From Lytechinus pictus (lineage: Eukaryota), in NCBI RefSeq assembly GCF_037042905.1, contig NC_087250.1:24492001-24556000 (forward strand): a DNA stretch of 64,000 nt, given 5' to 3'. Each line of letters starts with the position of its first letter. Within the stretch, counting starts at the first letter, position 1. The translations under genes and the position numbers were made by a program. Under the pieces are notes generated by a model. The model saw only the letters and a program-made list of their open reading frames with translations, was not told the DNA's origin and made no database searches. Below, one piece after another: positions 43,844 through 64,000 of this stretch.

Positions 43844-43978
43844 TGCCACAGTGCTAGTACACTCTTATTGACATAACCTCTTCAAGAGAAAATATGATTT
43901 GATCGTGAAGATTTAATTTGGAGGACAAGATGTCAGATATAGACCGAGAGACTAATTTTTGTCAAATATAATTTCAGT

Positions 43979-44249
43979 TTAATGTGTTAACCCAACGGCT
44001 TTTAAAGCAAGTCCAAGTTCCTCAACCTGTTTACTAGGTCGGACGCGCTTTCTCCAGTCTTGAAGCATCTCTTTAAGACCTGAATTCGATACACTACTAG
44101 CTGATGAATCTGCTCTGACAAGGTATTTCTCCACCTGTGAGTGGGAGAAACCGAGGTTGTAGCCAAGCTCACGAGCATCCTTTATTCCACAGATTAAACC
44201 AGACAACACCTGTATCATGTCGTTCGAAACGAACCTCATTCCACCTCTT
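43979..44249 (-). CDS. ZU5/UPA-DD gene terminal exon: death domain 5
   Basis: tattcag|, phase 2. Encodes VSNDMIQVLSGLI...ARELGYNLGFSHSQVE...EMLQDWRKR...LGLALKAVGLTH followed by a stop. Confidence 0.85.
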
Positions 44250-44731
44250 CTGAATAAAGGAGTAACGAATGGGGATTAAAGAAATTAAGTAGAAATAAAT
44301 AATACAGTCTGAGTTGAGCCAAGCTGAAGTAGACGCATCAAAACAGTGATTTCATTTTGAAAATCCTTTACATTCAAGGTCAATTTTCATCATTATCATC
44401 TAAAATCCTGATATAATACGTTTACTTAAACATTTTTTAATACGTAAATATCATAAAATCCAAAGCAAAAAGCGAGCAAAATTACAATCGACGATTACAT
44501 GGAATATGTTCGTACTCCTTTTAAGCAACTACGCATTCTTGAACCAAAACTATTTTGCGTATGTTGCAGCTATTAAGAAAAAAATGGATGATAATTCTTT
44601 AGTCATCAAAGTTATACATGGGTGTTTAGATAATCTTATTTCTTGTTTAAATGGTTGAATTTTTAACTATTTACTTAATAACATGGTTAAGTTCTAACCT
44701 CATTTGTGTTAAAAGATTTTTATTCTCTTAC

Positions 44732-44759
44732 CTTTGAACTTTTTCATAGTCAGGTTCCA
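44732..44759 (-). CDS. ZU5/UPA-DD gene 28-nt linker exon
   Basis: ttaaacag|TGGAACCTGACTATGAAAAAGTTCAAAG|gtaaga, phase 1-2, which bridges the neighbouring exons. Confidence 0.7.
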
Positions 44760-45074
44760 CTGTTTAAAAGAACAACAACGAAAGAGGAAAGGAAAGATAT
44801 TCTGTAATTTGCACATTCGGTAGCTTTCAATGCACAACGAAATATTTTATCTTTGATAAAAAAATATATTCCAAAGATGATTTCGTATTTATTTTCATCG
44901 AGTCAAATACATGATGTCTGATACATTATTAGCATTCTTCTTTAGAACTGTAGAATGGAAATCAAATATGAATCTTTGGGTAATCGTATATTTATCTTGT
45001 GTAAAGGCTGTATTCGATGGTCTTTTTATTTTCAAAATCTTCATTAACATATGATCGTTCCCTTTTTCACATAC

Positions 45075-45219
45075 CTTCTTTGGAGATATTAATTTCTTGT
45101 TCTGCGAGAATGGATGAGCCCTGCTCAATGCAAACACGAACACGCTTATCATCGGTTGAGGGCGGCAGACTGATGTCTATAGTATGACATCCTCCAGATA
45201 GTAGGGAATAGATGTGAAT
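45075..45219 (-). CDS. ZU5/UPA-DD gene exon (second UPA-like module, end)
   Basis: Encodes IHIYSLLSGGCHTIDISLPPSTDDKRVRVCIEQG. Donor G|gtatgt, 145 nt, phase 0-1. Confidence 0.72.
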
Positions 45220-45516
45220 CTTCATGAAGAAATGGGAGATTGAAAATGGAATCTGAGCAATTTTCATGAACTGCTTTCGATATCAGTAACATCCGTCATC
45301 TTCGACGAAATTTTTTTGGTGCGTGGTGATTTTTTTTTTCAACATTCTGAATAGATATTAAAACAAGCGATTCTGAGCTTATGGTAAAGGCATTTTATTA
45401 TCTACTGAAAATGTATTTGGTAAATTTGGTTGACAATTATTTTTAGTAAAGTATAGATATGCGACATGACATCAAAGAGGGGTGACATTTAAAAAAATCT
45501 TCAGAATGATGCTTAC

Positions 45517-45651
45517 AGTTTCTTGAGTCTTCTCCGAGCCAGTGAGACACGAAAGCTTGATGTTATCTTTAGCAAATTCAAGACTAAATGTGATTACAGT
45601 CGTGACTTCGTAGAATGGTTCCGATAAGCTGTAATTCTGTCCTTTCACACC
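45517..45651 (-). CDS. ZU5/UPA-DD gene exon (second UPA-like module)
   Basis: tttccag| and ACT|gtaagc, 135 nt, phase 0-0. Open reading GVKGQNYSLSEPFYEVTTVITFSLEFAKDNIKLSC. Confidence 0.75.
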
Positions 45652-45795
45652 CTGGAAAGAAACGTTGGTAAATATCTAGATGTCATGTGAATCACTATTT
45701 GGATAGAATGTCTGCATTTTCTTTTTAAAGTAAGACGCATTTATTGCATGAATCAATATATAAACACACGCACAAACACACCTTTGTACACCCAC

Positions 45796-45847
<52 letters not shown>

Positions 45848-45897
45848 CGTAAATAAATCAAGCATTAACGCTAGACGTAGCTTCCAAGTATCTCTTT

Positions 45898-45934
45898 TAT
45901 TACGAGCTTTCGGCCAGTGGGGCCTTCATCAGGC
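45898..45934 (-). ncRNA. Hammerhead-ribozyme-like motif, separated from its 5' flank by a foldback insertion
   Basis: CUGAUGA-AGGCC-ccacu-GGCC-GAAA-GCUCGUAAUAAA. The original 5' flank continues at 48148-48160. Confidence 0.6.
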
Positions 45935-48139
45935 AGTTTATAATCACTCGCGTCGCGTGCGGGTTCGTAATCACTCGCGTTTTGAATTTTTGGCGATTTT
46001 TTTTTTATTTCGGTGCGGTTTTTTTTAAACGGTGTCTTCAATGGGACAGACATGCAGGGAAATAAAATGAAATTCGAGTTTCGTTTTAAGCCGGCAAGTG
46101 CCTGAAATAAGATGTAGGCCTACTCGACTACTGTTTTAACATAACAAACAAGCAAATCAGCCATGTGGCTCAACTAACTTAGAATAGATCCGGACTTCTA
46201 CTGTGTCTTATAGAGGACTCCGAGTCGGAACTTGCCATATCTGTCACATCGATATTACATCGTATCATTGCCATATGCGGACATGCCTGCATGCAATGGC
46301 CCCAAGGCGGCCGGACCCGACCGCGTACGGACACGACGTGCATCGGTAGCATGGAGCAAGCTAGTTGAGTCGAGCTGAGTTAGATCTCACGTTACATATG
46401 AGGCGCCGATTGTACCAATATTATATAAAACAATTATTTGTTATATAATCATAATTTATTATATAATAACTATTATTTATATATAATTTACATTTTATTT
46501 GAAAATAATTACTATTATATAAAATAACATTTCTAATTATTTATAGGAGCGCCTTGAGCACCTAACAAGGTGGATATGTGCGCAATATAAATACCCTATA
46601 TTATTATTATATATAATTCCAAGTAATACTTCATTATTTGTAAATAATGATTATTTGTTGTCATTATTTATAAATAATGATTATTTGTTTTTCATTATTT
46701 ATAAATAATGATTAATTGTTTTTCACTATTTATAAATAATGATTATTTGTTTTTCATTATTTATAAATACTGATTGTTTGTTTTTCATTATTTATAAATA
46801 ATGATGATTTGTTTTTCATTATTTGTAAATAATGATTTTTTTTTTCATTATTTTTAAATAATGATTATTTGTTTTTCATTATTTATAAATAAGTTTTTCG
46901 AGTTTTCTATTATTTGTAAATAATAATTATTTATTAACAATGCCAGTGCACATTTCTTTATTTATAAATAATTTGTTGAGTTTCCCATTATTTATAAATA
47001 ATGATTATTTGTTAAATAATGAAGACGTCTACTTCATTATTTATAAATATTTTTTTCGAGTGCGCCATTATTCTCATTATTTATAAATAATCATTATTTA
47101 ATGTTCGAGTTTTCCATTATTTATAAATAACGATTATTTGTTAAATAATGAAATATCTACCTCACTATTTATAAATAATGAAAATTCATCGTGTTTCATT
47201 ATTTATTAATAACAATTTTGTTTCAATATCCCATTATTTATAAATAATCATTATTTATAAAAGATTTTTACAGTTTGCCATTATATACAAATAATCGTTA
47301 TTTATATACAAATAACCATTATTTATAAATAATGAAAAACAAATAATCATTATTTATAAATAATGAAAAACAAATAATCATTATTTATAAATAATGAAAA
47401 ACAAACAATCATTATTTATAAATAATGAAAAACAAATAATCATTATTTGTAAATAATGGAATGTCGAACTATTATTATTTACAAATAATGAAGTATTACT
47501 TGGAATTATATATAATTAGAAATGTTATTTTATATAATAGTAATTATTTTCAAACAAAATGTAAATTATATGTAAATAATAGTTATTATTCAATAAATAA
47601 TGATTATATAACAAATAATTGTTCTATATAATATTGGTACAATCGGCGCCTCATATGTAACGTGGGATCTAACTCAGCTCGACTCACGTTAGCTTGCTCC
47701 ATGCTACCGATGCACGTCGTGTGCGACCGCGGCCGGGTCCGGCCGCCTTGGGGCCATTGCATGCAGGCATGTCCGCATATGGGAATGATACGATGTAATA
47801 TCGATGTGGCAGATATGGCAAGTTCCGACTCGGAGTCCTCGTATAAGACACAGTAGAAGTCCGGATCTATTCTAAGTTAGTTGAGCCACATGGCTGATTT
47901 GCTTGTTTGTTATGTTAAAACAGTAGTCGAGTAGGCCTACATCTTATTTAAGGCACTTGCCGGTTTAAAACGAAACTCGAATTTCAATTTCATTTTATTT
48001 TTCCAGTACGTTTGTCCCATTGAAGACACCGTTAGAAAATAAATCGCACCGAAATAAACAAAAATCGCCAAAAATAAAAAACGCGTGTGATTACCAACGC
48101 GACGCGAGTGATTACGAACGCGAGTGAATATAATAAGCC
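45932..48139. mobile_element. Foldback-type non-autonomous transposon (2.2 kb, almost entirely inverted repeat)
   Basis: About 600-bp outer arms (45932-46540 vs 47510-48139) enclose inverted arrays of AT-rich units (TCATTATTTATAAATAATGA). Flanked by a duplicated (C)CTTCATCA at 45924-45931 and 48140-48147. Confidence 0.85.
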
Positions 48140-48442
48140 CTTCATCAGGCCAGCATTGAAATTAACTTTGGTTTATGTTCATCTGGAGGAGTAGTAGTCT
48201 TGTGTAGGTAATACTATAGTTCCAGTGTCATGGAGAGTGTGTCGACTAGGTGTGCAGGAATGAGGTAAAGTGAGGTTTACCTCATTCCTCACTTTACCTC
48301 ATTCCTCACTTTTACCTTTTCTCACTCACTTTTCCTCATTCCTGCACACCTAGTCGACACACTCTCCATAACACTGGAACTATAGTATTACCTACACAAG
48401 ACTACTACTCCTCCAGATGAACAGAAACCAAAGTTAATTTCA

Positions 48443-48484
48443 ATGCTGGCCTGATGAAGGCCCCACTGGCCAAAAGCTCGCAAT
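48443..48484 (+). ncRNA. Hammerhead-ribozyme-like motif, core mutated (GAAA to AAAA)
   Basis: UGCUGGC-CUGAUGA-AGGCC-ccacu-GGCC-AAAA-GCUCGCA, followed by AAUAAA. Confidence 0.55.
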
Positions 48485-48589
48485 AAAAGAGATACTTGGA
48501 AGCTACGTCTAGCGTTAATGCTTGATTTATTTACGCCCATACGTAGAACATGACGCGCTGCAATACACGTTGTGCAAAGGGCCCTCTTC

Positions 48590-48623
<34 letters not shown>

Positions 48624-48672
48624 TTGTAAATAATTCAGCATCAACGCAAGACGTAGCTTCCATGTATCTCTT

Positions 48673-48717
48673 TATTACAAGCTTTCGGCCAATGGGGCCT
48701 TCATCAGGCCTATAATG
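48673..48717 (-). ncRNA. Minimal hammerhead-ribozyme-like motif (Penelope-type), intact core
   Basis: AUUAUAGGC-CUGAUGA-AGGCC-ccauu-GGCC-GAAA-GCUUGUAAU, overlapping an AAUAAA. Both conserved core boxes and a stem II are present, and the flanks are complementary. Confidence 0.7.
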
Positions 48718-49619
48718 CATTGAAACAAACAGAACAAACCATACAAATAAGGTCGAAATAACAAAGTGAATGTGTAACAAAGGGTACAGAACAGAAGGGT
48801 TACACTAAGATAACAAAAATAACAGAAATTAACAACAGAGGGGGTTGAGTACAGAACAGAAGGATTATAGTAAGATAACAAAAAATAACAACAGAGGGGG
48901 TGATGACTTGAACGAGATGGTGGAATACAATAGAAACGATTGGGAAACTTAAGTGTGTGAAAGGACAAGGTATTTACCGGCATTGAAATTAACTTGGGAT
49001 TCTGTTCATCAGGAGGAGTAGTGAGTCTTGTGCAGGTAATACTGTGAAAAAATGAGGATAATGTTTCAAGTAAAATGATAACTCGTTTCAATATTGTATC
49101 TTGTATTTGGGTACATAACTATATTGATCCGTTTACATAGTATTCAAGTAACTGGTGATACAAGTTGTAGTTTGAGACATAAAAGGGTACATTGTCATGC
49201 GCGGGGAAATATATACGTGTAATTTATATTGATGTTTGAGCGGTAAGCAACATAATAAACAAAATAACAGATTAAACATACAGCCATCAGGAGCAAAATA
49301 AACATACAGCCATGAGGAGCAAAGAAATTGTAATAATCAATCAAATAATCAGATATAATCAAGTGATCAAGATACTAAAAGCATACCAAACTGTATAGGG
49401 GTAAAGAGATGTGGCTATTAAACTATATGAAGTGGCCTGTTGGGGCGGGTGAGACTGTAAATTAAACAATGAAATAGGTCGAAAAGGTATGTAACGGGTT
49501 TAATAATTACCAAACATTATTATGCATATATATGAATATGTATATATTCATATGAATATGTATATGTATATGAACATGACGCGCTGTAATACACGTTATG
49601 CAAAGGGCCCTCTTCTTTT

Positions 49620-49622
<3 letters not shown>

Positions 49623-49686
<64 letters not shown>
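49623..49686. repeat. (TA)n microsatellite (others at about 14960-15004, 45798-45845, 48593-48622)
   Basis: Directly visible. Confidence 0.95.
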
Positions 49687-49690
<4 letters not shown>

Positions 49691-49841
49691 CTGCTGAGTA
49701 GTCAAATTTTGCGGTACTTGAGAGCGTCTTTGAGAAGTTTTCCTTCTTAAATATTATCACAAAATCAGATTTTCTTATAATTTAACCCTTGCTCATGCAT
49801 GGAATGCGATTCTTGAAAATCAACATAGGGCTCAAACATAC

Positions 49842-50059
49842 TGCATAGTCTTTGCAGTAAGGATGTGCAATATAGATTCGTAGAGTGGGCTGTGGGGGGT
49901 TGGTCATGAACAGAGGCTGCGATACTTCACAGATGAACTGAACTCCATGAATGTCGCTTGAAGACAAAGCAAAGTATTGAAGATGACGCGTTGAGAAGGT
50001 AACCCTGCCTTCGGAGGTTTCGACAGATTTAGGAAGCAATGTCCTATACCCGAATTCTC
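49842..50059 (-). CDS. ZU5/UPA-DD gene exon: ZU5 end and UPA start
   Basis: ttctag| and GCA|gtatgt, 218 nt, phase 1-0. Encodes RVTFSTRHLQYFALS...TLRIYI. Confidence 0.8.
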
Positions 50060-50238
50060 CTAGAATATGCAAAAGACGAGAAAAATATTTAGTGTTAAAA
50101 ATAAATTATCGTGTTGAGTCCAAATGTGACTGGATATCAATTTGAATAGTTTCATATTAACACCCCAAAGCCGACAAAAAAATCAAACAAGAGAATTAAT
50201 TCTTATTAGAAACGTATACTAACTAAATTTGGTATTAC

Positions 50239-50584
50239 CTGGACCTATTTTGCTGTAAAGCTTTACACTCAAGTCTTGCTTCTTTTGCTTGTCTTGGTCT
50301 GGTTTGATGCAATGAGGAAGCACTGTAGTTGCCGATTTGAGAAGGTCATGGTTGAAGGAACATTGGATGATCGGTGTTATGAGAACTTCACCAGCATCCA
50401 GGGGTAACTTGGATGAACTTCCTTTTAGGACAGTGAGAGTAACAAGTGATCTCATTCCTTTTGGGCATCGATCCTGAAGGAATAGATACTCTGATGCCAA
50501 TGTCATCTAGCTTCAGCTCTCCACCATCATGATCAATGATGCCATGTGTAAACGGAATAAAGAAACCCGGGTGATGTTTCATTG
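50239..50584 (-). CDS. ZU5/UPA-DD gene exon: ZU5 domain (frameshifted at 50459-50462)
   Basis: GIIDHDGGELKLDDIGIRVSIPSGSMPK in one frame continues as GMRSLVTLTV...EVLITPIIQC...VLPHC in the +1 frame. These are typical ZU5 motifs. The exon is 346 nt where 345 is expected. Confidence 0.85.
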
Positions 50585-50896
50585 CTAGGGAAATAATAAC
50601 CTTCGCGTCAATAAATATATATTGTGGCCTTTGGCGTGGCTAAGATAAGACAAAATATTGATCGATATACCATCTCCTCTATTGAAGAATTACCTCTGGT
50701 ATAATCCCTAACTTTGAAACGTACATCTTGAATTTGCTTCCAAATTATATTGATTGCACAATGGTACGCTGATCAACGAAGCAATACAGAATCAACATTG
50801 ATAGGATTGTGCAACAAGGGCCAGCAAATAACTACATGTATTTTGAGGGTTTTTAAGAGATGATCTGTCAGTGAAAAAAACTAGATATGGTATGAC

Positions 50897-51030
50897 TAAT
50901 AATAATAATAATATGCAACATTTATATAGCGCTTAATATAATTTTTTCTAAGCGCTGCATACTATTACCCCGGCTTTAGCACGGCTACCCTGATCGGGCG
51001 CATCGAGCATTTAAGGAATTCCTTCCTACC
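50897..51030 (-). mobile_element. SINE 3' fragment
   Basis: On the minus strand, CCGGGGTAA...AGCGCTTAG...AAGCGCTATATAAAT followed by (TAT)n, matching the tail at 14238-14315. Confidence 0.6.
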
Positions 51031-51300
51031 TATTTTATGAATAAAATAACATAAAACTTTAATCAAATATGTTGTCTCTTTCAAAGAAATACAATAGTTA
51101 CAGATTATCTATGGCAAATTCCCTAAACTTGAGTCATACAGTCAAGAAATATCAGAAACTTCGTTTAAGTAGCTGCACAAGGATGAATAATTAATAGACG
51201 AGAAACATACGCAAACTTGGCTAAAAGAGGCATTTATAGATGATTCTTTTTAATACACCTTTAACTTTAAAATTTTCGTCACATGGCTGCTATTGCCTAC

Positions 51301-51549
51301 CTGTAGCTATACGCTTTGCAGCATCAGTGAAATTAAAAGCTTGAGCAATTTCAAGCAACCTCAGCCTTGTTCCTTCTTGTTTGACCCATCTCTGAAGCAT
51401 TTGTAGAATCATCCGACGTATCATGGCAGGTTCAAAGGTCAAATAAGATGACATCACCTGAAGAATTTCATTAGATGATAGATCCAGTCGTTGGGTGAGT
51501 TCGATGAGGTCTGGAGTTGTACGAATCTTCGCTGAAATTCCATCAATAC
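51301..51549 (-). CDS. ZU5/UPA-DD gene exon: death-like domain 4
   Basis: Encodes DLIELTQRLDLSSNEI...MILQMLQRWVKQEGTRLRLLEIAQAFNFTDAAKRI. 249 nt, phase 1-1, donor G|gtaggc. This frame is not shown in the ORF track. Confidence 0.8.
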
Positions 51550-51727
51550 CTTTTTCATGGGGGAAAAATTACATAATAATTTCACTATGAATGAAGATTC
51601 ATGTTCAACCTCTGTCTCCCAAAATATAACGATCTTGCCCATTTTCCTTTCCAACCAAATTTCTCTAAAACGTGTTAAAAAATAATACCAGTCAGTAAAG
51701 GCTAGTATAATAAAATACATATCATAC

Positions 51728-52012
51728 CTATTTGAGTGTCCTCAATGTTGTATCTTTGAAGAAGCGTAGACACCTTCTCTTCCTTCTCATGTCTTCCTAG
51801 ACGTCTACACCAGTGATGAAGGATTTGCCAAGCTAGTCTCTCCATTAAGGCAGGGTCGCGAGGAGTAATGGCAGTTGCGATGTCAATAACCAAACGAAGA
51901 GCTTTAGTCACTTCTAAGGCCAAATTCACATTCGCCAATGGACGAACGACTGTACACAGTTCTGAATTACTAGGTGAACCTCCACACTCGTCGAAGTCTC
52001 CAATAATGCCAT
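51728..52012 (-). CDS. ZU5/UPA-DD gene exon: divergent death-like domain 3
   Basis: Encodes PSNSELCTVVRPL...ERLAWQILHHWCRR...KVSTLLQRYNI. Donor G|gtatga, phase 1-1. An alternative in-frame acceptor at 52018 is possible. Confidence 0.75.
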
Positions 52013-52304
52013 CTTTGTCTTCGATTTAATAATATAAAGTTGGTTGAATGTTAATCGAAATTTGAATAAAGATTAACCCAATAAAAGGATCGTCAGTACT
52101 CTATTGATAAAACGCGATCTGTCATTTGTTTTTAGCATTAGCATTACCAATCTCTTGGTTTTGGTTCTATCGAAAGCATATTTTTTGTCACTACAGCTTC
52201 TTTCATATTTTGCCATTAGCCCCCCCCCCCCCTCTCTCTCTCTCTCTCCCTCTCTCCCTGTCCATCCACGCCCTCGCTTACTGTATTTTTTTATTCATTC
52301 CTAC

Positions 52305-52445
52305 CTGACTCTGAGTAATTTATAATCTTCCAATCTTCATTCTCATGACCTTCATCCTGTTCTGATTCTTGTTGAGATGATCGGTCAGAATTCACTTCCG
52401 GGTCAAGAGGAGTCTCACTATCATCGACATCTCTATTCTCATCAT
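52305..52445 (-). CDS. ZU5/UPA-DD gene exon: acidic linker
   Basis: cacgcag| and G|gtagga, 141 nt, phase 1-1. Encodes DDENRDVDDSETPLDPEVNSDRSSQQESEQDEGHENED. Confidence 0.75.
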
Positions 52446-53320
52446 CTGCGTGATATAATTTATAGCCAGAGGGTTTATTGCATTTTAAATCTTCCTTTGA
52501 AAACTGACCGTCTTGCGCCGTTAAAAGAAATGTACATGCGGCCTCTCCCCTAAAAAAAATGCCGACCGCGTTTTGAAGTTAATTTCCCTAATTTGACGAG
52601 GCAAGAGCTGACCAGTTCTATTTCTATGGTCTAAACTTTCTGTCGCCGAAAAATATTTTATTGATAACTATAGTGAAGCTAAATCTACCCGTCATAAATG
52701 CTCACTCGCGATTGCTGTTTCAATTGTAATTTGCACGTTATTTTATATTTGAAGGAGTAAACAACGTTTAAAGGAAAAGATGAATATATGATTTGTGTCA
52801 TTATGCTGTAAAATAAAGAGGACCGTAACGGGTTACAATAAGCCTTTGGTAACTTTGTTATATATAAGAAGAATTGTAAGAGAAATTACATTCATTCATT
52901 CAGTTATTTTCTCTTTAAGGATGTTCATAGCATAGAATGATTAAGGATATTCCAGAATCAGTAAGGCTCTATGGTAAGGCTTTGTCATGCATGTCTATTT
53001 AATAGGCTGAATAATCTATGTTATTTGTGGATTGTAGACAATAGACTGTAACACAAAGAGATTCGTAGTGGTAGTGCAAATGAACAGTAGGATTAGCTAT
53101 TTTGTTTACAATTGTTAATTTCACTGAGGTTATTCAAGAGTCTTCTAGAATTTGATTGCTCCTGAAAGAAGGGGAATGTTCTTTTTAAAGACAATACCAG
53201 AAGCTTCCAGAATAGTGAATACTAGAAACTTCCAGAATAGTTGAAATTTGTATATATCAGCTGGCAGTTTCAGATCACATCATATCAGATCAGAACTCAG
53301 AGTTTCACGCACTACTTTAT

Positions 53321-53793
53321 GTCAGAGCAGACTATATTTCCATCTGGGATATTCATCTTCTGTGGAACTATTTGCCCGCCATCAATGAACTGTTTGCAGT
53401 TATTTTGAGAGAGGAATTCTCAGTTCTCATCGAGATCATCGACCTGTTCAATGAACGCTTTTCAACCCACAGTTTACTGAAATTGACTGTTAATCATCAT
53501 CAACATCATCTTCACGGACATTTCAACTCGTCACAGTGACTAATTTATTCATCGTGCTTCAACATCAGTTTCATCATCGCCATCATTGTGAACTTTAATT
53601 TACGGAACCTTCGCCAACCAACTTGGATTAAATACTGGACTATCATAACCTTGGGATTATAATCAACACTTCAAGATATGTAAGACCGTTATCATGTATT
53701 TATATTTGTTAATGTGTAATCAATTTCCTGTAATAAAAGAAAAGGAAATCAAATTCAAAACTAAATATTGTTATTTGTTGCAGTGTCGTAACA
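53321..53793 (+). repeat. LTR-like dispersed repeat, copy 2 (intronic)
   Basis: Direct repeat of 31572-32031; ends in GTAACA. Confidence 0.55.
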
Positions 53794-53906
53794 ACTTAAA
53801 CAAAAGTACTGAAGTCGAGCCGAGCACTTTGCTACTCAAACAACTTGTCTCCACGTTTTTCATTAAGTTCGCATTTTATTTAAATTCATAAACTGATTTT
53901 GAATAC

Positions 53907-54166
53907 CGTTCATGACAGTAACTTTCGACGCCTCATTCAAAGATTCCCAGACCATCTTCAATTTCTCATCCGGTTTATCCGATGATATTTGAGATGCTTT
54001 CCACATCGAGAGCATATGGATGTTAGCATCCTTCCTATTGTACAGGGATCGATGCTCGATGTGACGTAATTCCATATCGTCAAATCCCAGTTGCTTGCCA
54101 ATCTCATAGAATTTCTCTTTGTTAATGTGACGGGAAAATTGTAACAGTGTGCTGTCAGGAATCTCT
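53907..54166 (-). CDS. ZU5/UPA-DD gene exon: death domain 2
   Basis: Encodes EIPDSTLLQFSRHINKEKFYEIGKQLGFDDMELRHIE...IHMLSMWKASQ. atacag| and G|gtattc, 260 nt, phase 2-1. Confidence 0.85.
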
Positions 54167-54416
54167 CTGTATTATTGGTTGAAATTATGAATTCACTATT
54201 AGTAATTGAAGCCATCATAAGATACATTAATTTAAAAATAATACAATTGGCATTTATGCTCCATTACTGTAATTTAGAAGACATCTTAAATATTTAACTG
54301 ATTTACTACGAATTTCAGTGTTTTGAATAAAGTCGAAAAGCTCTTTCCATATCCATTTATTGCTGTCGTTTTTTTTTTCATTTGTATATGGTAAAACTTA
54401 AACTAAAGAAACTTAC

Positions 54417-54432
54417 TTAGTCGGGTCCATGT
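54417..54432 (-). CDS. ZU5/UPA-DD gene 16-nt micro-exon
   Basis: tcaag|ACATGGACCCGACTAA|gtaagt with a consensus donor. It converts phase 1 to phase 2, as needed to join the flanking death-domain exons. Confidence 0.6.
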
Positions 54433-54807
54433 CTTGATGAGCGTACACGGTTAAGAGAAGGTGATGACCAAGTAAATTTGCAGAAGAGAGAGAGAAAAAA
54501 AAAATCAGTGAATAAACTTAATCATTGCACGCTTGCTATTCACAAGCATGTATGTTGTTCCTCCTACAAACCTAAATGATCTTAAAAGTACAGATGAGAA
54601 AGTAAAGAATTACGCTGGTCAATTTAAGGAACTTTTTAGTTAAAAAATTGTCAGATATCCGAACTGTCTATTTTTTAACAATATTTGTGGACTTTAGAAA
54701 CGAAGGTGCAATTACAACATGAATCTGGAAGTATTTATTCTGAAACTAGTGAAAGAATATTACTTATCATTCTGAAACCAGTAAAATCCAAAAGCATTAA
54801 CTCAGAC

Positions 54808-55091
54808 CTGGGAGGGTTGTAGTATTTGATAAGCTGAATGATTCCATGAGTGTGATGAGAGCATTCTTTGCTGCTTGGGTAGATGTTTGTCTCCTTCTCC
54901 ATACCACCAGAATGTCATAGACTGCCTGTTCTCTGTCTTTGAATCTCATGTAGTCTACCCTATCCAACTCAGCTATGGTGAAACCAAGAGCTATGCCCAA
55001 ATCATAGAACTGATTTACGTCCATTGTCTGGGCTATTTTTAAGACGTCTATGTCAGATTGTAGGTCACTGTTCTTTACTTCTTCTTTTGTC
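54808..55091 (-). CDS. ZU5/UPA-DD gene exon: death domain 1
   Basis: Encodes DVLKIAQTMDVNQFYDLGIALGFTIAELDRVD...AVYDILVVWRRRQ, a death-fold pattern (LGxxLG, MLxxW). ttcag| and G|gtctga, 284 nt, phase 2-1. Confidence 0.85.
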
Positions 55092-55406
55092 CTGAAAGAT
55101 AGATTGAAATAATGCCTAGTTAAGATATCAAAGAATTGTTGCTCAATTATAATTGAATGCAAATTACATACTACTTTTAATGTGTTGCAATGCACTATTA
55201 TATGCATGACGTGACAACATAATTTTCAAAGCCTTCGCTGAAAAGTGGTCGTTTTGAGAACGTGACAGAAAGTATACGATGAAAATGATTTCGTAACACT
55301 TCCAACCGATTAACTGATATAAAATAAATAGTTTTTTCCCCAAGAAATACTTTTAGCCTACTTGAATAAAATAAAAATCTAACCATTTTAACCGATGGAG
55401 ACATGC

Positions 55407-55452
55407 CTAATGAAGTTTGTCTGTTCAGAGGGAGTTTGGCACTCCGGTCCAT
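55407..55452 (-). CDS. ZU5/UPA-DD gene linker exon with probable GC donor
   Basis: Strong acceptor ttttttag|. Encodes DGPECQTPSEQTNFI. AG|gcatgt gives the phase 2 that the next exon needs. Confidence 0.6.
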
Positions 55453-56323
55453 CTAAAAAAAGAGAGAACATGAAGAGAGGATTAGATATAGAACGAACAT
55501 TTCCTGTGTTTTCTGTTTACAATGAGAAAGCTCTTCTTGTTTTATAATGTGAAAATTACCTTCGGCATTAACATATCATGAATTATGCTTGATGTCCGCT
55601 ATAATGATATATATTTTTGAATACCGTTCATTTACTTAATGAAAATGGTCTCGAAGTAAAACATTGATTGTGTAACGAACTCAGTCATTTTTATGTGAAC
55701 GTGCGTGCACGTGGAGAGAGACGGGTGCAGCGCGCGGCACTTATGTCTGTCGGCCCATTGTTAATGGGGGCAGTTGCAGTTTGTGAGGCCTGGGGAGTGT
55801 TTCATCAACATTTTCATCCGACAAGTTGTCAGATCTGACATCTTTCTCTGATTTTGATTGGCTGAGAGGTACTGTTAATATGGTAACTGTCGGATAAAAT
55901 GAGACTTGTCGGATAAAACGTCCGACAAGTCCTTTCATGAAACGCTCCCCAGGTGTGGGGACATATGTGCCGTGCGCTCCCGAAGATTTTCAGGTGCCCG
56001 TTCTTGTGACAAAGTGTTTTGCATTATTTTAGGAGGGTAAGTTACCCAGCATTAAAGTGTTGTAACCTAAATATTAGCGTGCAGTGTAATCTATACTAGT
56101 TGTGCATATATTCTGTGTTTAATAGCAGAATGACCACGTGAGCACAGTGAGTGAATGACACAACTGATCTAAGTCCTGTCAAAAGTGAGTGGATCGAGAG
56201 AGAAAGGAGAGAGCGAACCCATCACAATATTTATTGAATCCACAAGCAATACTTTTAGTGACTGAAATAAGTTATATAGTTATATGAAATAAAAATTATG
56301 AACTATAAAACATGAAAATATAC

Positions 56324-56486
56324 CTGCATATCTAATAACAAAGGCAATAGATCGTGATGTATCATGCTTTCCAGGCTGTGTAATCGTTAAAGTAATCACT
56401 GCCAAGTTTAAATCGTCTTCACTGGGTGGTACGTATAGCGATATACAATGGCTCATCTTTGCTTGAAGGTCCCCAAGAGAAACGAC
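56324..56486 (-). CDS. ZU5/UPA-DD gene exon (first UPA-like module, end)
   Basis: aaacag|...G|gtatat, 163 nt, phase 0-1. Encodes VVSLGDLQAKMSHCISLYVPPSEDD..., similar to exon 45075-45219 (HTIDISLPPSTDD). Confidence 0.75.
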
Positions 56487-56668
56487 CTGTTTGGAAGAAG
56501 AAGGACAGCAACAGAATAGTGGAATGTATAGATCGCCTAGATTTTGCCAAATCCCCATAAAAAGTATTGTTTAACTTGCTTCGGGATTACTATGCTTACT
56601 AACTAAATGAATTGCAAAGAGCACCTTATTCATTTACGATTATCAAAGAATTTATGACGTTTGATTAC

Positions 56669-56797
56669 CTGGCTTTCAAGATCTACTCCCTCACGATGGC
56701 ATGTAATTGTGACGTCACCAGACTTTGTTTCAAAGCTGAATGGAACCGAGCGATGACATCTATGGTACGACTGTAGCCTCGATTCCTCTTGTATAAC
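56669..56797 (-). CDS. ZU5/UPA-DD gene exon (first UPA-like module, part)
   Basis: gtgtag|...CAG|gtaatc, 129 nt, phase 0-0. Encodes VIQEESRLQSYHRCHRSVPFSFETKSGDVTITCHREGVDLESQ; positional paralog of exon 45517-45651. Confidence 0.7.
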
Positions 56798-57040
56798 CTA
56801 CACGGATTGACATATTCTATTTTTATTTACATTATTTTGTTCGCAAATATGTGGGTACAGATCTGAAAAGTCATTATTTCATACAAACTTTTTCAAAAGA
56901 CAATCCTAAATATAAGTATTTCAACAATCAATTGAAGTCTAAGAAATGCCATTCTCCCTGCAAATATTCATCTCATGCGGGTGGAGATTGACAAATTTAA
57001 ATAATGCCATGTCAAATGTGACATTTAACCACAGATTCGT

Positions 57041-57560
57041 TTAAAGGAGAATGAAACTCTTGGAGCAAGTTAGCTTTTGTGAAAGCAGAAAAATCAAAGA
57101 ATAAGATCAACAAAAGTTTGAGTAAAATAGGACTAGCAATAGAAGAGTTATGAGCATTTGAATGTCGAGATCACTAATGCTATGGAGATCCTCCCATTGG
57201 CAATGCGACCAAGATCTATGATGTCACAGATGAACAACTCTCCCCTTTTGGACACTGAAAATATACCCCAAAACATCTCTTTTTGCTCATTCTAATCATA
57301 TGACAAAAGATTCATCAATGATATAATGTTGTGAAACCTCTGTACTTGTCCTCTCGTAAAGAGAACACCTCACCTTGTGATAGACTATAAAAGTGAGAAT
57401 ATAAGTTAAATAAGTACTTAAGTAATGAAGGAGTTGTACGTGTGTGACATCACAGATCCTGGTCACATTGCCAATGGGAGGATCTACATTGCATCAAAAT
57501 TTCTTTGATTTTTCTCTTTGATATGGATTCAGCTGGTTTCAAGGGTTTCATTTTCCTTTC
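57041..57560. mobile_element. TTAA-type MITE, family C
   Basis: Same sequence as 35641-36232, with a deletion in the right arm. Confidence 0.85.
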
Positions 57561-57644
57561 AGAATCATAACGTTTTCAAAGCAGTTGTGAAATAGTAAAT
57601 GACCGAGAAGTATTCTGGAGCGATGTTGCTTACACGGGGACATC

Positions 57645-57768
57645 CCGATAGACCGCGGGTCCGATAGACCGCGGGTCCGTTAGACCGCGGGTACGATAGA
57701 CCGCGGGTCCGATAGACCGCGGGTCCGATAGTCCGCGGGTCCGATAGACCACGGGTCCGATAGTCCGC
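57645..57768 (+). repeat. 16-bp minisatellite (CCGATAGACCGCGGGT), about 7.5 copies
   Basis: Directly visible tandem array. Confidence 0.9.
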
Positions 57769-57914
57769 AGTGTGTGTAAAATTATGATCAGATATATCAA
57801 ATGTCATCGAGAGGTCCAAAGGTCAAATGATACGAGGCCATGGGGTTCTATCAGGTGCGGATCCATGGAGGGCCTAGGGGGAACTGCCTCACCCCCTCCC
57901 CCCACCCCCAGCTC

Positions 57915-58620
57915 AAAAAAAAGAGGGGGGAAGAGGGGAAAAGGGAGAGAATAAAAAAAGAAAGAGGAAGATGGGAAAAGAAGAGAATAGAAAAGAGAGT
58001 AAGAAGGAGAAAGGAAGAGAAGAAAAAGGGGAAAGGAAAGACAAAGAAAAAAGGAGAAGAAAAGGGGAAAGAAGAGGGGAAAAAGAGGAGGGAAAAGGAA
58101 GAGAAGAAAAGAAAGGAGAAAGAAAAAGGAGGAAAAAGAAGAGGAAAGAAGAGAAGAATATTTAAATAGAGAGGAAGATGGGAAGAAATATAAGAAAAAA
58201 GAGAGAAAGAGGAAGAGGGGAAGAAGAGAAGAAAGAGAGAGAGGGAGGAAGGGGAGAGAGAGAAGAAAAAAATATTAAAAGAGAAAAAAGGGAGAAGGAA
58301 AGAAAAAGAAAAAGGGAGAAGTAAAGGGGAAAAGAAAAAAAAGTGGAAGAGGGAAAAGAAAAGAACGGAGTAAGGAAAAGGGGGAAAAGAAGAAGAAAAA
58401 AGAGCGAGAGTAAGTGGGAAGAGAGGAAAAACGAGAAAAGAGGGAAAGAAAAGACAGCAAAAAGAGAAGAAAAGGGGGAAAGAAAAGATGGGGGAAAGAG
58501 AAGAAAGGGGGAAAAGAAGAGGGGGAAAGAAAGAGAGAAAGAAAGAGAAAGGAAGGAAGGGGAATGAGGATAAAAGAAAGAAAAAAGAAAGAAAAGGAGA
58601 TGGGAAACGGAAGAGGGAGA
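57915..58620 (+). repeat. About 700-bp polypurine (A/G) low-complexity tract
   Basis: Almost no pyrimidines on the + strand. Confidence 0.9.
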
Positions 58621-59069
58621 TGTTGACCTGGACGTCGATTTGATGGCGCCAAAATGACGTTCGAACTATGGGGCGCCGAATTGATGTTCGATCTAGCGGG
58701 GCACCAAATTGATGTTCGAACTAGGGGAGCGCTAATTTGAATTTTGACCATAATGCGACAAATACATGTTTCAGAGAGGGGAGGGAGGGCAAAGTTATAT
58801 TTCACATGATGGGGGCGCCAAGTTTATGTTCAACCGAGGGCGCCAAATTGACCTTGAACTTAGAGGGCTTCATGCAAATTCATTTTCGACCGGGGACGCA
58901 ACATTGCCTGTTTATAGTAAAAATATATGTCCTGCCAAAAAACTTCAATTAATGCGGCTGAATTAAAATATCCCGTTTTTACGATAACAGAAAAAAAAAT
59001 GTTTTCGAGTTTTAAGTCTGTTTAGCGAGATAGATACCCTGTTCAGGGTCACAAAAAAGGGTTATTGTC

Positions 59070-61210
59070 AAATTCAGCTCGCGCTACGCGCTCGCAATAT
59101 TTGATTAATGAGGTATGCATCCTCTGCTTCAATCCCACATGTAAGTGTTAGTGTTTTTCAAGTCAACATACCTAGGTCGATCCAGGGGGCAAAGATTTTG
59201 CCCCCCCCCCCCATGGTGGCGCAAAAAGGGGTAAGAAACAGAAAAATGGAAGAGAAAAGGACAAGCAATTAGAATAGGAATTATACCTTAGTCCTTCTTA
59301 AGTCAGTATATAAATACAGCTCAATAGGCTGATATGTAGTTTAAAATATCAAGTTTTGATATCAATATACAAAACATAATTCAGCTCGGACATCGATCTT
59401 TCATTATTTTGTTTTATTTACCAATTTATGTTTTAAGTGCTCTGGAAAATGTCCGTTTTATGGTTTGAATCAACATTTGCAACATTTTGTGCGCTCGCAC
59501 TATATGCCAAGTAGGCCTATGTATTGTCTTTTTATATTTCATATAAGATTCTCTAAATATACCTTTTCAGGTGTCTCGATTATAAAAAAAAAAAAAAGGC
59601 CTATGAGCTAGCGCTGTGCGCTCGCGTTTTGATTGGTGAGTTATGTATACCTATATATTAATTTTATAACAAACTACTTAAATCCCCCCATTAAAAGAAA
59701 AATCCGGATCGCGATTTGCGCTCGCATTATTTGCTAAAAATATATCAACCAATGAATCCTATTCATGATTATAAAAATACTTAAAATATCCAGTTTTCAG
59801 GCCTCATGCACTGTCAACAAATTTCACACACTCATTAGGCTTAACAGATTAATTAATATGAAATAAAATTTGTATAAATTCATTATAACTAAATTGTCCC
59901 TTTTTCAGAAATAAATTTTTAGGAAAACAAAGAGAAGATAGTCATCATTCTTATCTGATGACAAAATGTCCTTAGGCCTAAAATGTCTCGATCCTAGGTC
60001 AAATAAATAATAAAATATCAGCTCGCGCTTCGCGCTCGCATTATTTATATAGTGCTATCAAATTTCCCTATATACACAGTGCTGTAAACAGTGCTTAAAT
60101 TGACCCTTTTCATATCGGAATTTCAAATATTATTTTCAGCTCGGGCTCTGCGCTCGCATTATTGATTTCTATGATGAAAAATGAAATGTATTCAGATTGC
60201 CAGGATTCTGTCTAACTCTAAAACACGCGCACGCATGTTTTTAGGATACAAAGCTTGATCTTATTCAAAACGTGCTAAAATTATCCAGTTTCGAATCAGA
60301 ATATCAAAAAAAAAATGCTCGCGCTTTGCGCTCGCATTATTATTGTAGGAAGATACCAAAAATTACCCATCCTTTTTCATGATTGACAAACATGAATCGA
60401 ATGTCCCATTGGGGGATTTGAAATCTCATCTTTTTAGGTTGGAATATCAAAAATGTTCAGCTCGCACTTCGCGCTCGCATTATTTAATCGTTGAAATATG
60501 TATCGTCTTAATGGCTAACTGCAAAACATCCTTAACATGTCCCTTTTCGACCAGGCCAGAACGAATATTTAACATTTCTGCTCGGCTTCGCGCTCGTGGT
60601 AATTATCTAGTTATATACGCTGTTCAGGTTCACAAACATTGCCCAAAATGTTCAATTTTCAGGACAAAATACATGAAATTTCATTTTTAGATTACATAGG
60701 GCTTAAGAGATTATTACACATTTATGTTGCTTATAAAGTAAAGCTAGGAAATGACTGTTAGGACATGGGTGTTTTGCCCCCCCCCCCAAAAAAAAAAAAA
60801 AAAAAAAAAAGAAGAGAGAATCAAAAAATAGAGAGAAAAGGAAAGGGATAAGGATGAAATATAATATTATTTTCCAAATATTATGTCAAAATCTATCACA
60901 ACCTTGTATTTTTGTAATAAAAATGTCAGCATATTTGCTTGCTCGCTTCGCTCACTGGCAACTTCTTATTAATTTTATGCGATACACCATATCGAGCCCC
61001 CTCGAAATTGTTGGCTCATTACGGCACTGGGACAACCCCTTCAAAGAAACAAAAAAAAAATCAACTTTGAGCGGCCGATCGGGGAAAATATGGGTGAAAA
61101 AATAGCCCCTCCCCCTAATGGCGGAAGCTGGGTCCGCCCCTGACTTAGGCTTTCAGGATATAATACATGAGAAATCTATAAAAAAAAAAATCAGATCGCG
61201 CTTCGCGTTC
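59070..61210 (-). repeat. Dispersed repeat family with periodic TGCGAGCGCGAAGCGCGAGCTGAA motifs
   Basis: The motif recurs about every 60-150 bp. 59340-60180 is an inverted homolog of about 38680-39720. The same family occurs at 11430-12070 and 17740-19500. Confidence 0.75.
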
Positions 61211-62224
61211 TCATTATTTATTTAGGCCTTGTGAGAATTTAAGAATTTAAGAATGAAATATCATATTTTCTTTGACGTCTACCCCCTCCCATTTCATTTA
61301 TTTTTTTTAACTTGGTGCCCTCGCCACCCATCCCCCCCCCCCGTGCACCCATGCTGAATAAATACGCCAGCAGCATAGAATATACCCTACTGAAGGTGTT
61401 AATTACTTCTTCCGGTAAACAATAGGGAAGCGGAAATTGGTTAATTAGTGTGACTTCCGGTGACAATAAGGAAGCGGATCTTCGTTAATAAGACATCATT
61501 CCGATGACATCCTGTAAACAATAGGAATGTGGATATTCGTTAATGATGCATCCTCCCAGTGTCTTCCTTTATCCGGAAGCACATTCTTTTGTTCTAAAAT
61601 CATTCATGGAGCAAGGGGGGGGGTCACTGAGCCATATACCTGGGGATCTGGGGATTAGCCACTTGGTTTCCTTGAGCAGGATAATCAGACATGTATTTGT
61701 CTGTGAAGGTCTGAGTATATACAATATGATCAATGAATTACATTCTGATATTTCTTTGGACACACCCACCTTATTAGATAGAACCTGATTGGTCATTTGG
61801 TTTGACGATTTTAGAGTGGAATATATGTCAGTGATAAAGGGCATGATGCGCATGCATTCCTTTTCACTTTTAGACCAGTTTTTTTCCCTGTTTTTCATTT
61901 TTATTCTTGTTCTATATTAGTGATTCAATTCAATTGCTGGTATATTATTCTTGATTTTATTCGATAAAATAATCTACATATTGTTTCATACTTCAGATTT
62001 GAATTTAGTTTGTTTGGTTCATTATTATAAAGTAGACGCCCTCTCCCCCCCCCCCCCCCGCTGTTTTGTCATTACCACTTGGTAGTTGCGTTATGTGCTA
62101 TCTACAAACCATTCCTATTTATTGGGGAGGGTGTGGTAGATGGGGTAGGGTGGAACTGGTGGGTCTATTTAAAGATTGATAGCTGAGATGTTGATGTATT
62201 TCAGATTTTGTATAATAACATAAT

Positions 62225-62490
62225 TCAATAATGATAACAATAATAGTTACATTTATGTAGCGCTTCATACGTTGGTTTCTAAGCATTTTACATATGTCAT
62301 TATTATCACCCTGGTCATAGGATCCACCACTGTTCCACACACAAAGTGCACCATCTCCACTCTCTGTGAGCATCCTGGCCAGGCAACCATTTATCGGTTC
62401 ACACATGCCAAGCTAATCGCATTGACGTTCACATCCTATCGCGTACCCATTTAACACCTGGGTCGAGAATTGCAAAGTGTGGATTGTATG
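62225..62490 (-). mobile_element. SINE, 5'-truncated, same core family
   Basis: GTACCCATTTAACACCTGGGTCGAG is the inverse of the core at about 14080. The AGCGCTACATAAAT plus (TTA)-like tail is present. Confidence 0.7.
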
Positions 62491-62702
62491 TAGCTAGATA
62501 GTTCTACTTGTGAAAATTTGAAGTTTCCACCCTTGGTAGACGTAGGTACTGCAATATCAAACAAATGTACAACATAATTAAAGTGAACAGTATTTTTTTT
62601 TTCAATGCACATAAACATACAGACATTACAATCATCATTACTGTCAGTATTTTCTTTCACAGAGTTCGTTTATGATCAATCTGAATCTTATGCATCGTTG
62701 CC

Positions 62703-63389
62703 TCACTTGCCACCATCTTCGGTATCATCTGTTTCTCCTTCACTGCTGTCTTCATCCTGGTATTGGAATAATCCCTCAAATTTTGTCTTATGTCTGGCTA
62801 CTACACGGCGAATGGCTTTCCACTTCTTCATGCCATTTTCTACTTTCTTCATGATGTCAGAAAGGATTTCGTAATTGGTGTCATCATCTTCAAGGTACAA
62901 GCTCTGTCGCAAGAAGTTAGAGTAGTGGTCAAAGAAGATTCGTTTAACAGCCCATAGAACTTTCACATGGGCTTTTTCTTTAGCATCATTATCACTCATA
63001 CCATTGGAGATATACTTTTTGTATTTTTCATTCCTCGACTCCTCAGTTGCTATCATGGCCATTTCTAACCATTCATGGTAAGCCTGGTTATCTTCAAGTT
63101 CTCCTGTCTCGTCCATCTCTGAATTCATTGATTCTTCCTCTCCTCCACTTTCCGAGTCCTCGGATGGTGCATTGCCGTCATGGATAGCCTCCGCAACTCG
63201 GTGCTTTTTAGATGGAGGTTCATACTGAGAATCATCTTCGCTATCCTCTTTTTCGTATTCAGTGTCTTCGTGGTCTTCCATTTTGGGGTGTACAATCTGT
63301 TCGTGCCTCTTGAGATCAAATTTTCGACCATATGATTTATTACACAGTGAACAACTGTAGCGCTTGGACATGAAACTATTCATGTTCAT
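62703..63389 (-). CDS. Intronless C2H2 zinc-finger, acidic, helical C-terminal protein (228 aa); possibly Maverick/Polinton- or virus-associated
   Basis: YSCSLCNKSYGRKFDLKRHEQIVH is a C2H2 finger, followed by an acidic tract with an NLS-like PPSKKHR and a charged helical C-terminus. The start was moved from the GTG at 63446 to the first ATG. The mobile-element association is from recollection only. Confidence 0.75.
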   Translation of the reverse strand: MNMNSFMSKRYSCSLCNKSYGRKFDLKRHEQIVHPKMEDHEDTEYEKEDSEDDSQYEPPSKKHRVAEAIHDGNAPSEDSESGGEEESMNSEMDETGELEDNQAYHEWLEMAMIATEESRNEKYKKYISNGMSDNDAKEKAHVKVLWAVKRIFFDHYSNFLRQSLYLEDDDTNYEILSDIMKKVENGMKKWKAIRRVVARHKTKFEGLFQYQDEDSSEGETDDTEDGGK

Positions 63390-63443
63390 TCGTTGAAGTT
63401 CCGTTTGCAAATGACACAGAGCAACTGAATCTTCATACTTGTA

Positions 63444-63675
63444 CACTCTAAATTACAGGGATTTAAAACAAGTCCACATGGACTGTAGTTAGGGACCAAT
63501 CGAATTCCGGATTTAGTTTGAATCCTTAAGATTCATTTTTAAATCTCGAAAGATTTAAATTTAAATCATTTGAGATATAAATTTAAGTCGTTAGGATTAA
63601 AACTAAATTCAGAAATCGATTGGTCCCTAGCTACAGTCCATCTGGACTTATTTTAAATCCCTGTAATTTAGAGTG
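63444..63675. mobile_element. Palindromic MITE with CACTCTAAA termini and TA duplication (CACTA/EnSpm-like)
   Basis: ta|cactctaaattacaggg...ccctgtaatttagagtg|ta. It is absent from the opposite palindrome arm (empty site ctgTAcaag at 63901-63909). Confidence 0.8.
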
Positions 63676-63957
63676 TACAGATCGCATTGCCGCAAATAAA
63701 CATGGCGTTTACGCCGTAACGCCGTTGACGGCGCTCGGGATGCATTGATACGGCGTAAACGCCGTTTTTATTTGCGGCAATGCGATCTGTACGAGTCTGA
63801 AGATTCAGTTGCTCTTTGACGCCGTAGCAATGCATCCCGAGCGCCGTCAACGGCGTTACGGCGTAAACGCCGCTTTTATTTTTATTTGCGGCAATGCGAT
63901 CTGTACAAGTATGAAGATTCAGTTGCTCTGTGTCATTTGCAAACGGAACTTCAACGA

Positions 63958-64000
63958 ATGAACATGAATAGTTTCATGTCCAAGCGCTACAGTTGTTCAC
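63958..64000 (+). CDS. Start of an inverted second copy of the zinc-finger ORF (runs off the window)
   Basis: 63902-64000 is the reverse complement of about 63347-63445 and reads MNMNSFMSKRYSCS. Confidence 0.7.
   Translation, partial: MNMNSFMSKRYSCS

Follow-up and report, generated by a model that had tools for sequence, protein, structure and literature searches.

A very probably disabled Lytechinus pictus copy of an echinoid gene family joining ankyrin repeats to two ZU5-UPA modules and several death domains

The stretch of DNA analyzed here (the window) comprises 64,000 nucleotides of the sea urchin Lytechinus pictus (NCBI RefSeq assembly GCF_037042905.1, contig NC_087250.1, positions 24,492,001 to 24,556,000; C6:24492001-24556000 of an 812-Mb genome), and its minus strand carries part of a gene for a protein with several death domains (DD) and ZU5-UPA modules. 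All 15 exons of the original prediction, which had been read from the letters of the window, are present with AG acceptors at the positions it gave, and a GT donor was found at every exon except one, which has GC after 55407 (Table 1). Their order, UPA-DD-DD-acidic-DD-DD-ZU5-UPA-DD, proved to be real, with DD3 as the least certain domain, and the phases of the exons starting at 56797, 56486, 55452 and 55091 (0-0, 0-1, 1-2, 2-1) mirror those of the exons starting at 45651, 45219, 44759 and 44249, as had been noted. The exons had also been called phase-compatible, which does not hold because the ZU5-2 exon is frameshifted by one extra A and the spliced frame stops at 50390. A reading of the locus as two separate genes is disfavored by the compatible phases flanking the acidic exon and by predicted proteins of three species, each of which extends across both halves. 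Contigs from four of seven sequencing runs matched 49780-56900 as short pieces, mostly repeats and paralog-like sequence, and among the matches listed there was no splice junction and no indel at the frameshift position.

Table 1. Exons and other features of the gene. Positions refer to the window unless C6 is named.
Feature	Position	Strand	Phase	Remarks
Giant ANK exon	C6 about 24568820-24571349	-		Starts ATG; 863-residue ankyrin open reading frame (ORF), about 15 kb beyond the window
ZU5-1 exon	C6 about 24564210-24564551	-		
Terminal inverted repeat (TIR) transposon, 1,084 bp	C6:24559774-24560857			Inside the ZU5-tail/UPA coding exon; 4-bp target duplication
Intron; gene runs on past the window end	56798..64000	-		
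UPA-1 exon a	56669..56797	-	0-0	Beta domain 227-355 in the P0010 model; no Pfam match
UPA-1 exon b	56324..56486	-	0-1	
Linker exon	55407..55452	-	1-2	Donor GC, GT in paralogs (defect)
Death domain 1 exon	54808..55091	-	2-1	BLAST to DD2 E 6e-10; Pfam Death at the same place in relatives; hhalign 99%
16-nt linker exon	54417..54432	-	1-2	Same residues between DD1 and DD2 in relatives
Death domain 2 exon	53907..54166	-	2-1	Pfam Death E 9.6e-5
Acidic linker exon, predicted disordered	52305..52445	-	1-1	Putative fusion point of the halves
Probable death-like domain 3 exon	51728..52018	-	1-1	Six confident helices at DD3 in the P0010 model; hhalign 69% to DD5
Death domain 4 exon	51301..51549	-	1-1	Pfam Death E 5.8e-4 (below cut-off); hhalign 93% to DD5
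ZU5-2 exon, 346 nt	50239..50584	-	1 to 2	+1 frameshift, stop 50390-50388 (defect)
Last strands of ZU5-2 and start of UPA-2	49842..50059	-	1-0	HLQ at the HFS self-cleavage position
UPA-2 exon a	45517..45651	-	0-0	
UPA-2 exon b	45075..45219	-	0-1	
28-nt linker exon	44732..44759	-	1-2	
Death domain 5 exon	43952..44249	-		Premature TAA 43981-43979 (defect); next stop 43954-43952

We examined the DNA to 80 kb past the window end. As the original prediction had anticipated in looking beyond position 64000 for the N-terminus, the gene starts about 15 kb further on, its opening part comprising an ankyrin array and the first of the two ZU5s. The giant ANK exon is followed by two small ANK exons and then by the ZU5-1 exon; between the final ANK exon and ZU5-1 the phases imply a further small exon, which was not located. 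The intact design at this locus would read ANK(n)-ZU5-UPA-DD-DD-acidic-DD-DD-ZU5-UPA-DD, at roughly 2,100 residues as estimated from exon lengths. A genome search with the gene start region returned a tandem paralog as the sole other copy. Both of these genes, and only these two, begin with Met-Gly-Asn, which we take to resemble an N-myristoylation signal, and other family members begin otherwise.

Five defects of four kinds interrupt this copy, three of them within the window (GC donor, frameshift and early stop). The ZU5-2 exon holds one extra A in the run at 50462-50459 that is absent from all six paralog loci compared (a seventh did not reach across the exon); the spliced frame consequently ends after 591 residues, and the frame is open on either side of the shift, for 567 and 339 residues, up to the TAA at 43981-43979. 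This TAA removes the last nine residues of DD5, and the neighboring paralog reads GAA there. The sequence at the donor after 55407 is GCATGT, compared with GTAAGT in both paralogs holding the exon (two of three paralog stretches). Beyond the window, the likely start ATG is followed by TAA at codon 8, where the tandem paralog encodes Leu, and the ZU5-tail/UPA exon is split by the TIR transposon. The DD3 exon also has one codon deleted relative to 11 relatives. An uninterrupted reading frame, the mark of a functional family member, is therefore not what these five defects leave at the window locus. The copy probably makes no full protein, and the window very probably holds the 3′ half of a disabled member of an echinoid multigene family, which would be either a pseudogene or, in this haplotype, a null allele.

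To delineate this family, the genome was searched with single exons, and the matches were ordered along contigs after weaker rows had been dropped. The rows used were 38 of 44 for the last ANK exon, 26 of 85 for ZU5-1, 27 of 27 for DD3, 28 of 32 for ZU5-2 and 29 of 35 for DD5; for DD2, they were 28 plus 17 cross-matches taken as DD1, of 45, together with the window's own DD1. ANK, ZU5-1, DD2, DD3, ZU5-2 and DD5 occurred in this order at 25 of the 29 multi-marker loci, the window locus included (12 on contig C6, 3 on C8, 5 on C9 and 5 on C21). This full marker order at 25 loci answers, for the L. pictus genome, the question of paralog number that the original prediction had raised, and the ordered exon and domain set of the window gene is the same as that of its paralogs. 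Among the rows used, ZU5-2 was split over two frames at only 2 of 28 loci (the window locus and C6:26.58 Mb) and an internal stop lay in only 1 of 29 DD5 exons; in the exons tested, most paralogs thus have open frames. More distant ZU5 exons, with about 30 matches, form a large cluster apart from these loci at about 39.9-42.3 Mb on C8 and on contig C37.

The closest named proteins are from L. pictus and L. variegatus, with 84-93% identity for most top matches. Predicted proteins spanning both modules include LOC121405948 of L. variegatus (P0010), LOC135155399 of L. pictus (P0018) and P0161 of Strongylocentrotus purpuratus, the longer member of the cluster of LOC105445056 (P0016); P0161 has 29 Ank matches and, in its predicted form, lacks DD2 and DD5. 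The sources of 20 representative matches, of 150 listed, were all echinoid except for a hemichordate, an amphioxus and one distant match. RefSeq lists relatives in Lytechinus and Strongylocentrotus as uncharacterized predictions, and the predicted echinoid proteins, stand-alone halves included, carry the automatic labels 'uncharacterized', 'ankyrin-3-like' or 'Netrin receptor UNC5'. Among the papers listed by literature searches on ZU5, death-domain and ankyrin proteins of sea urchins and echinoderms, no title or abstract opening describes the family and none of these predicted proteins is characterized; gene-family tables may hold a description.

The domain search and structure modeling that the original prediction had proposed yielded Death and ZU5 matches, with UPA-2 recognized by structure and DD3 weakly supported. 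Among the 15 window pieces, Pfam called Death for DD2 above the cut-off and for DD4 and DD5 below it (E about 5e-4), and it called ZU5 for both halves of the exon starting at 50584; DD1, DD3 and all five UPA-region exons were without a Pfam match, and no UPA was called in the family proteins either. DD1 is backed by a Pfam Death match at the same position in relatives and by its profile match to DD2. The DD3 profile had no match among PDB sequences below E 0.09. Folded alone, the DD3 exon of the window yielded a low-confidence model (pLDDT 60); its structural matches reached Z 6.2 at best, and none of those listed was a death fold.

We modeled the L. variegatus relative P0010 with AlphaFold2 from 37 sequences (pLDDT 71.8; predicted template modeling score, pTM, 0.47). 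The model contains beta domains at 76-220, 227-355, 789-927 and 933-1060 and five helical bundles at about 388-457, 475-549, 603-685, 695-782 and 1083-1169, with the acidic linker region 550-603 at a pLDDT under 50; at a pTM of 0.47, it does not fix the packing between domains. Foldseek ranked the UNC5b cytoplasmic domain first (E 3e-13), followed at ranks 2-7 by Ankyrin-B/G ZU5-UPA structures. In VIA comparisons, module 2 matched UNC5b (3g5b) over 268 aligned residues between 787 and 1061 (Z 20.3, rmsd 3.5) and CARD8 at Z 14.7, UPA-2 matched the NLRP1 UPA (Z 10.4), DD5 matched the PIDD DD (Z 11.2), and the module 1 ZU5 matched the ZO-1 ZU5 (Z 9.6), this last domain also being called by Pfam in relatives. 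Structural matches to UPA-1 were only generic beta-sandwiches (Z up to 8), so that we infer its identity from this fold in the model and from homology. The supramodule order ZU5, UPA, DD is present, and for module 2 it is drawn from Pfam, Foldseek and VIA together.

Between its two ZU5-UPA modules, P0010 shows 18% identity, and each half of this protein is collinear with a different stand-alone protein. Residues 2-554 align with the Diadema ANK-ZU5-UPA-DD-DD protein P0040 (XP_071479624; 32%, E 9e-70), and residues 598-1167 with the S. purpuratus ANK-DD-DD-ZU5-UPA-DD protein P0168 (29%, E 2e-56), one of the half-architecture proteins recorded as XP_011684014 / LOC105447531 (P0168, P0050). Each DD profile finds the same-position DD in P0040 and P0168 (hhalign), and the tandem pairing of DD1 with DD2 is clear. 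Module 1 was sister to the Diadema ANK-ZU5-UPA-DD-DD protein in a 33-row tree (support 100/99), and the approximately unbiased (AU) test rejected the two modules as an exclusive clade (p 5e-45). Module 2 grouped with P0168 (100/100) in a 26-row tree, which omitted two long branches as well as five outgroup rows that were near-duplicates. P0168 keeps HFS at the cleavage position discussed below, which fits a donor-like state. As these comparisons suggest, the design most likely arose when a gene of the ANK-ZU5-UPA-DD-DD type was fused, at a phase-1 intron, to a unit of the DD-DD-ZU5-UPA-DD type. The exon phases common to both modules are the ancestral layout of the module type. Separately, P0008 of S. 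purpuratus joins the family's DD1-DD2 to a different, HFS-bearing ZU5-UPA-DD tail; this tail groups with that of the S. purpuratus NLR P0171 (95/95 in the 33-row and 96/96 in the 26-row tree), a sign of repeated tail swapping.

Excerpts of two reports describe PIDD1 as cleaving itself at HF/S after each ZU5, with Ser, Thr or Cys needed as the nucleophile (PMC3210808, PMC9162469). In the family, the first site reads HCA or similar, with Ser, Thr or Cys at the nucleophile position in 0 of 23 close ZU5-1 matches and a Cys one place earlier; the second reads HLQ or similar, with such a nucleophile in 0 of 20 close ZU5-2 matches (the rows include several annotations of the same genes). HFS occurs in 28 of 39 distant ZU5-1 matches, and the ZU5-UPA-DD tails of P0171 and other relatives keep HFS or a variant. 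HFS has been lost on two independent occasions, once in each module. A predicted Ptychodera flava protein (P0153, XP_070578737) fuses a Rel-homology (NF-kB-type) region to ZU5-UPA-DD and has HFT at the cleavage position.

The ankyrin arrays differ in length among loci. ANK match spans at 10 other loci, one of them outside the 25, correspond to at least about 12-71 repeats (150 of 261 matches listed). In the paralog L020 (24 repeats, 74% mean identity), the between-repeat ratio of nonsynonymous to synonymous change (dN/dS) was 2.52 at six surface positions, which we presume from DARPin design to be the binding face (subsample range 1.69-5.37), and 0.56 in the framework; 5 of 20,000 random column sets reached the surface value. 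This suggests an excess of amino-acid change at the presumed binding surface. The same regime of excess change is described in part of a report on the ANK repeats of fungal NLRs (PMC4986451).

The original prediction read the domain content correctly, and the death-fold signaling role that it put forward is plausible. We lean towards regarding the window locus as a broken copy of a non-cleaving cytosolic sensor/adaptor family free of a nucleoside triphosphatase (NTPase), and we consider it an even bet, from sequence and model, that intact members act as cytosolic non-self sensors and adaptors. In such a mechanism, the variable ankyrin array would bind a non-self or altered-self ligand, and the ZU5-UPA units may keep the death domains masked at rest by analogy with UNC5b, whose ZU5 is described in the portions consulted of two reports as masking the DD (PMC9162469, PMC8358048). 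Pfam found no NACHT/NB-ARC NTPase in P0161, P0010 or P0018, and one is present in the distant relative P0171. With neither HFS site retained and no NTPase in these three proteins, activation would proceed by conformational opening or clustering, rather than by self-cleavage of the PIDD1/NLRP1 type or ATP switching of the NLR type. Once exposed, the covalently tethered death domains could bring in DD adaptors, kinases or caspases at high avidity.

Several observations weigh against this account. The UNC5b match in the model covers ZU5-UPA only (787-1061), with DD5 outside it, and the closed ZU5-DD state was not seen. DD3, besides having no Pfam match, has a low profile match of 14% to DD4 (hhalign). 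The frameshift falls within a homopolymer run, where misassembly could account for it. In the 26-row tree, a single clade of both modules and their stand-alone relatives was only weakly rejected (p 0.029); no stand-alone module 2 partner, the counterpart of P0168, was found in the genome, where the best matches were the family itself (81 of 238 candidates scored); and the stand-alone proteins from Diadema and S. purpuratus, being predicted genes, could be models that were split. Finally, the array of the window copy (17 repeats, 53%) has a surface dN/dS of 1.15 (subsample range 0.84-1.67) and 0.44 elsewhere, and all dN/dS values rest on non-independent repeat pairs in two genes.

Decoy and structural functions are the main rivals to the sensor/adaptor role. 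As decoys or brakes, intact members would use non-cleavable ZU5 modules and divergent DDs to absorb DD adaptors and dampen signaling by NLRs, TLR/MyD88 or HFS-bearing relatives. The double loss of HFS would suit such a function, as would related tails that retain HFS or a variant on P0171 and other proteins; a pure brake, however, needs neither a diversifying ankyrin surface nor about 25 copies of differing array length, and we regard this explanation as unlikely.

A different objection concerns the locus itself, which might be functional in the species, its defects being assembly errors or one haplotype of a polymorphic gene. The frameshift comes down to a single base within a run of As, and the remaining exons have kept open and conserved frames, DD2 for instance matching its nearest paralog at 93% identity. 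The 1,084-bp element belongs to a young family: of 1,980 candidates, 40 were scored, and 39 of these are further full-length copies with 97-98% identity, so its insertion may be polymorphic. Five separate defects would nevertheless have to be explained in this way; moreover, a 1-kb transposon with a target duplication cannot be a sequencing error, and the cryptic splice sites most evident in the transposon, judged by eye from its junctions, would leave an in-frame stop. We therefore hold a functional locus to be improbable.

Comparably improbable, in our judgment, is that the proteins are structural, ankyrin-like adaptors joining membrane proteins to the cytoskeleton without an immune role. 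True ankyrins are likewise not known to cleave themselves, the order of ANK, then ZU5, UPA and DD is shared, and Ankyrin-B/G structures stand high among the Foldseek matches. Canonical ankyrins, however, are described in part of one source as having 24 repeats and a ZU5-ZU5-UPA-DD arrangement and as single-copy in echinoderms (PMC5135030), whereas this family has one ZU5 per module, a repeat number varying about six-fold and tandem copies, some of them broken.

The least probable alternative is that of the original prediction, in which a single ZU5-UPA-DD module gave rise to both by duplication inside the gene and the five death folds form a pre-assembled signalosome seed: the matching exon phases, the tandem DD1-DD2 pair and the five helical bundles of the P0010 model favor it, but the low identity of the modules, the AU rejection of an exclusive two-module clade and the collinearity of each half with a different stand-alone urchin protein largely refute the duplication origin, and the model leaves the packing between domains unfixed.

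Beyond a broken member of a sensor/adaptor family, a broader and more doubtful proposal is that the cytosolic pattern-recognition receptors of camarodont urchins include a class of about 25 members that has not been described. In this class, natural DARPin-like ANK arrays, diversifying through selection and through gain and loss of repeats, would be wired to five tethered death folds; the receptors would be activated without NTPase or self-cleavage and would nucleate DD assembly directly. Their ZU5-UPA-DD tails would have been shuffled among these genes, NLRs and other sensors, and the window locus would be a casualty of birth-and-death turnover. Sea urchins, which have expanded TLR and NLR sets, are a main model for widening pathogen recognition without antibodies; if the proposal is true, a death-domain family with many copies and variable ankyrin arrays would stand beside these sets as a new type of receptor. 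The family would also test whether ZU5-UPA-DD signaling runs without the self-cleavage needed by PIDD1 and NLRP1, and the window copy is of value chiefly as a sign of rapid turnover among the genes.

The surrounding DNA holds further elements. A palindromic intronic element extends from window 61369-64000 to C6:24557979, with 2,078-bp arms that are 99.9% identical, central hairpins and a C2H2 zinc-finger ORF of about 220-250 aa in each arm. At least 150 places hold related ORFs, for the most part paired on opposite strands at a distance of 1-2 kb, and a tandem array of them lies on contig C17 near 8.14-8.18 Mb; the element is a dispersed mobile family, not an assembly artifact. The UPA-2 intron carries long inverted arms (45930-46560 and 47560-48150) around an AT-rich tandem repeat, probably a foldback-type element, and a short GC-rich unit repeated in tandem forms two arrays, in opposite orientation, at 37400-38020 and 39984-40607. 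On the minus strand, an 829-aa ORF (8717-11206) and a downstream exon (6305-6556) resemble a cysteine-rich, somatomedin-B-type adhesion or secretin-class GPCR.

The original prediction did not recognize this architecture from characterized proteins, and comparison bears this out. The family is predicted to work in the manner of an UNC5/PIDD-type ZU5-UPA-DD protein equipped with a repeat sensor, and it lacks defining features of PIDD1, ankyrins, UNC5 receptors and NLRs alike. UNC5b (PDB 3g5b), with one ZU5 followed by UPA and DD, is the best structural match. Unlike UNC5, the family exons were traced without an ectodomain or membrane anchor: Pfam detected no Ig-Ig-TSP-TSP ectodomain domains or transmembrane helix in P0161 or P0010, and the gene starts with ANK repeats. 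The family further differs in its two modules, three extra death-type domains and N-terminal ANK array, and in that the model does not show the closed ZU5-DD state. PIDD1 and the FIIND of NLRP1/CARD8 share the combination of a repeat sensor, ZU5-UPA and a death fold, with DD5 resembling the PIDD DD and UPA-2 the NLRP1 UPA. In contrast to PIDD1 (LRR-ZU5-ZU5-UPA-DD, LRR denoting leucine-rich repeats), the family has ANK in place of LRR and single rather than tandem ZU5s, and, unlike PIDD1 and FIIND proteins, it has neither an HFS nor an SFS motif (as defined in excerpts of PMC3210808 and PMC9162469) at the two sites and no NACHT. Canonical ankyrins (24 ANK-ZU5-ZU5-UPA-DD) likewise place an ANK array ahead of ZU5, UPA and DD, whereas the family has a variable repeat number in one giant exon, one ZU5 per module, five DDs and about 25 copies. 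The fungal NLR ANK repeats, in the part of the report consulted (PMC4986451), resemble its arrays in internal similarity, repeat-number variation and excess change at the binding face; the family differs in its lack of a NOD/NTPase, its N-terminal ANK and its death-domain output, so that the likeness is one of analogy and not homology. The predicted echinoid relatives represent the same family or half-architectures, and the window copy differs from them in being broken.

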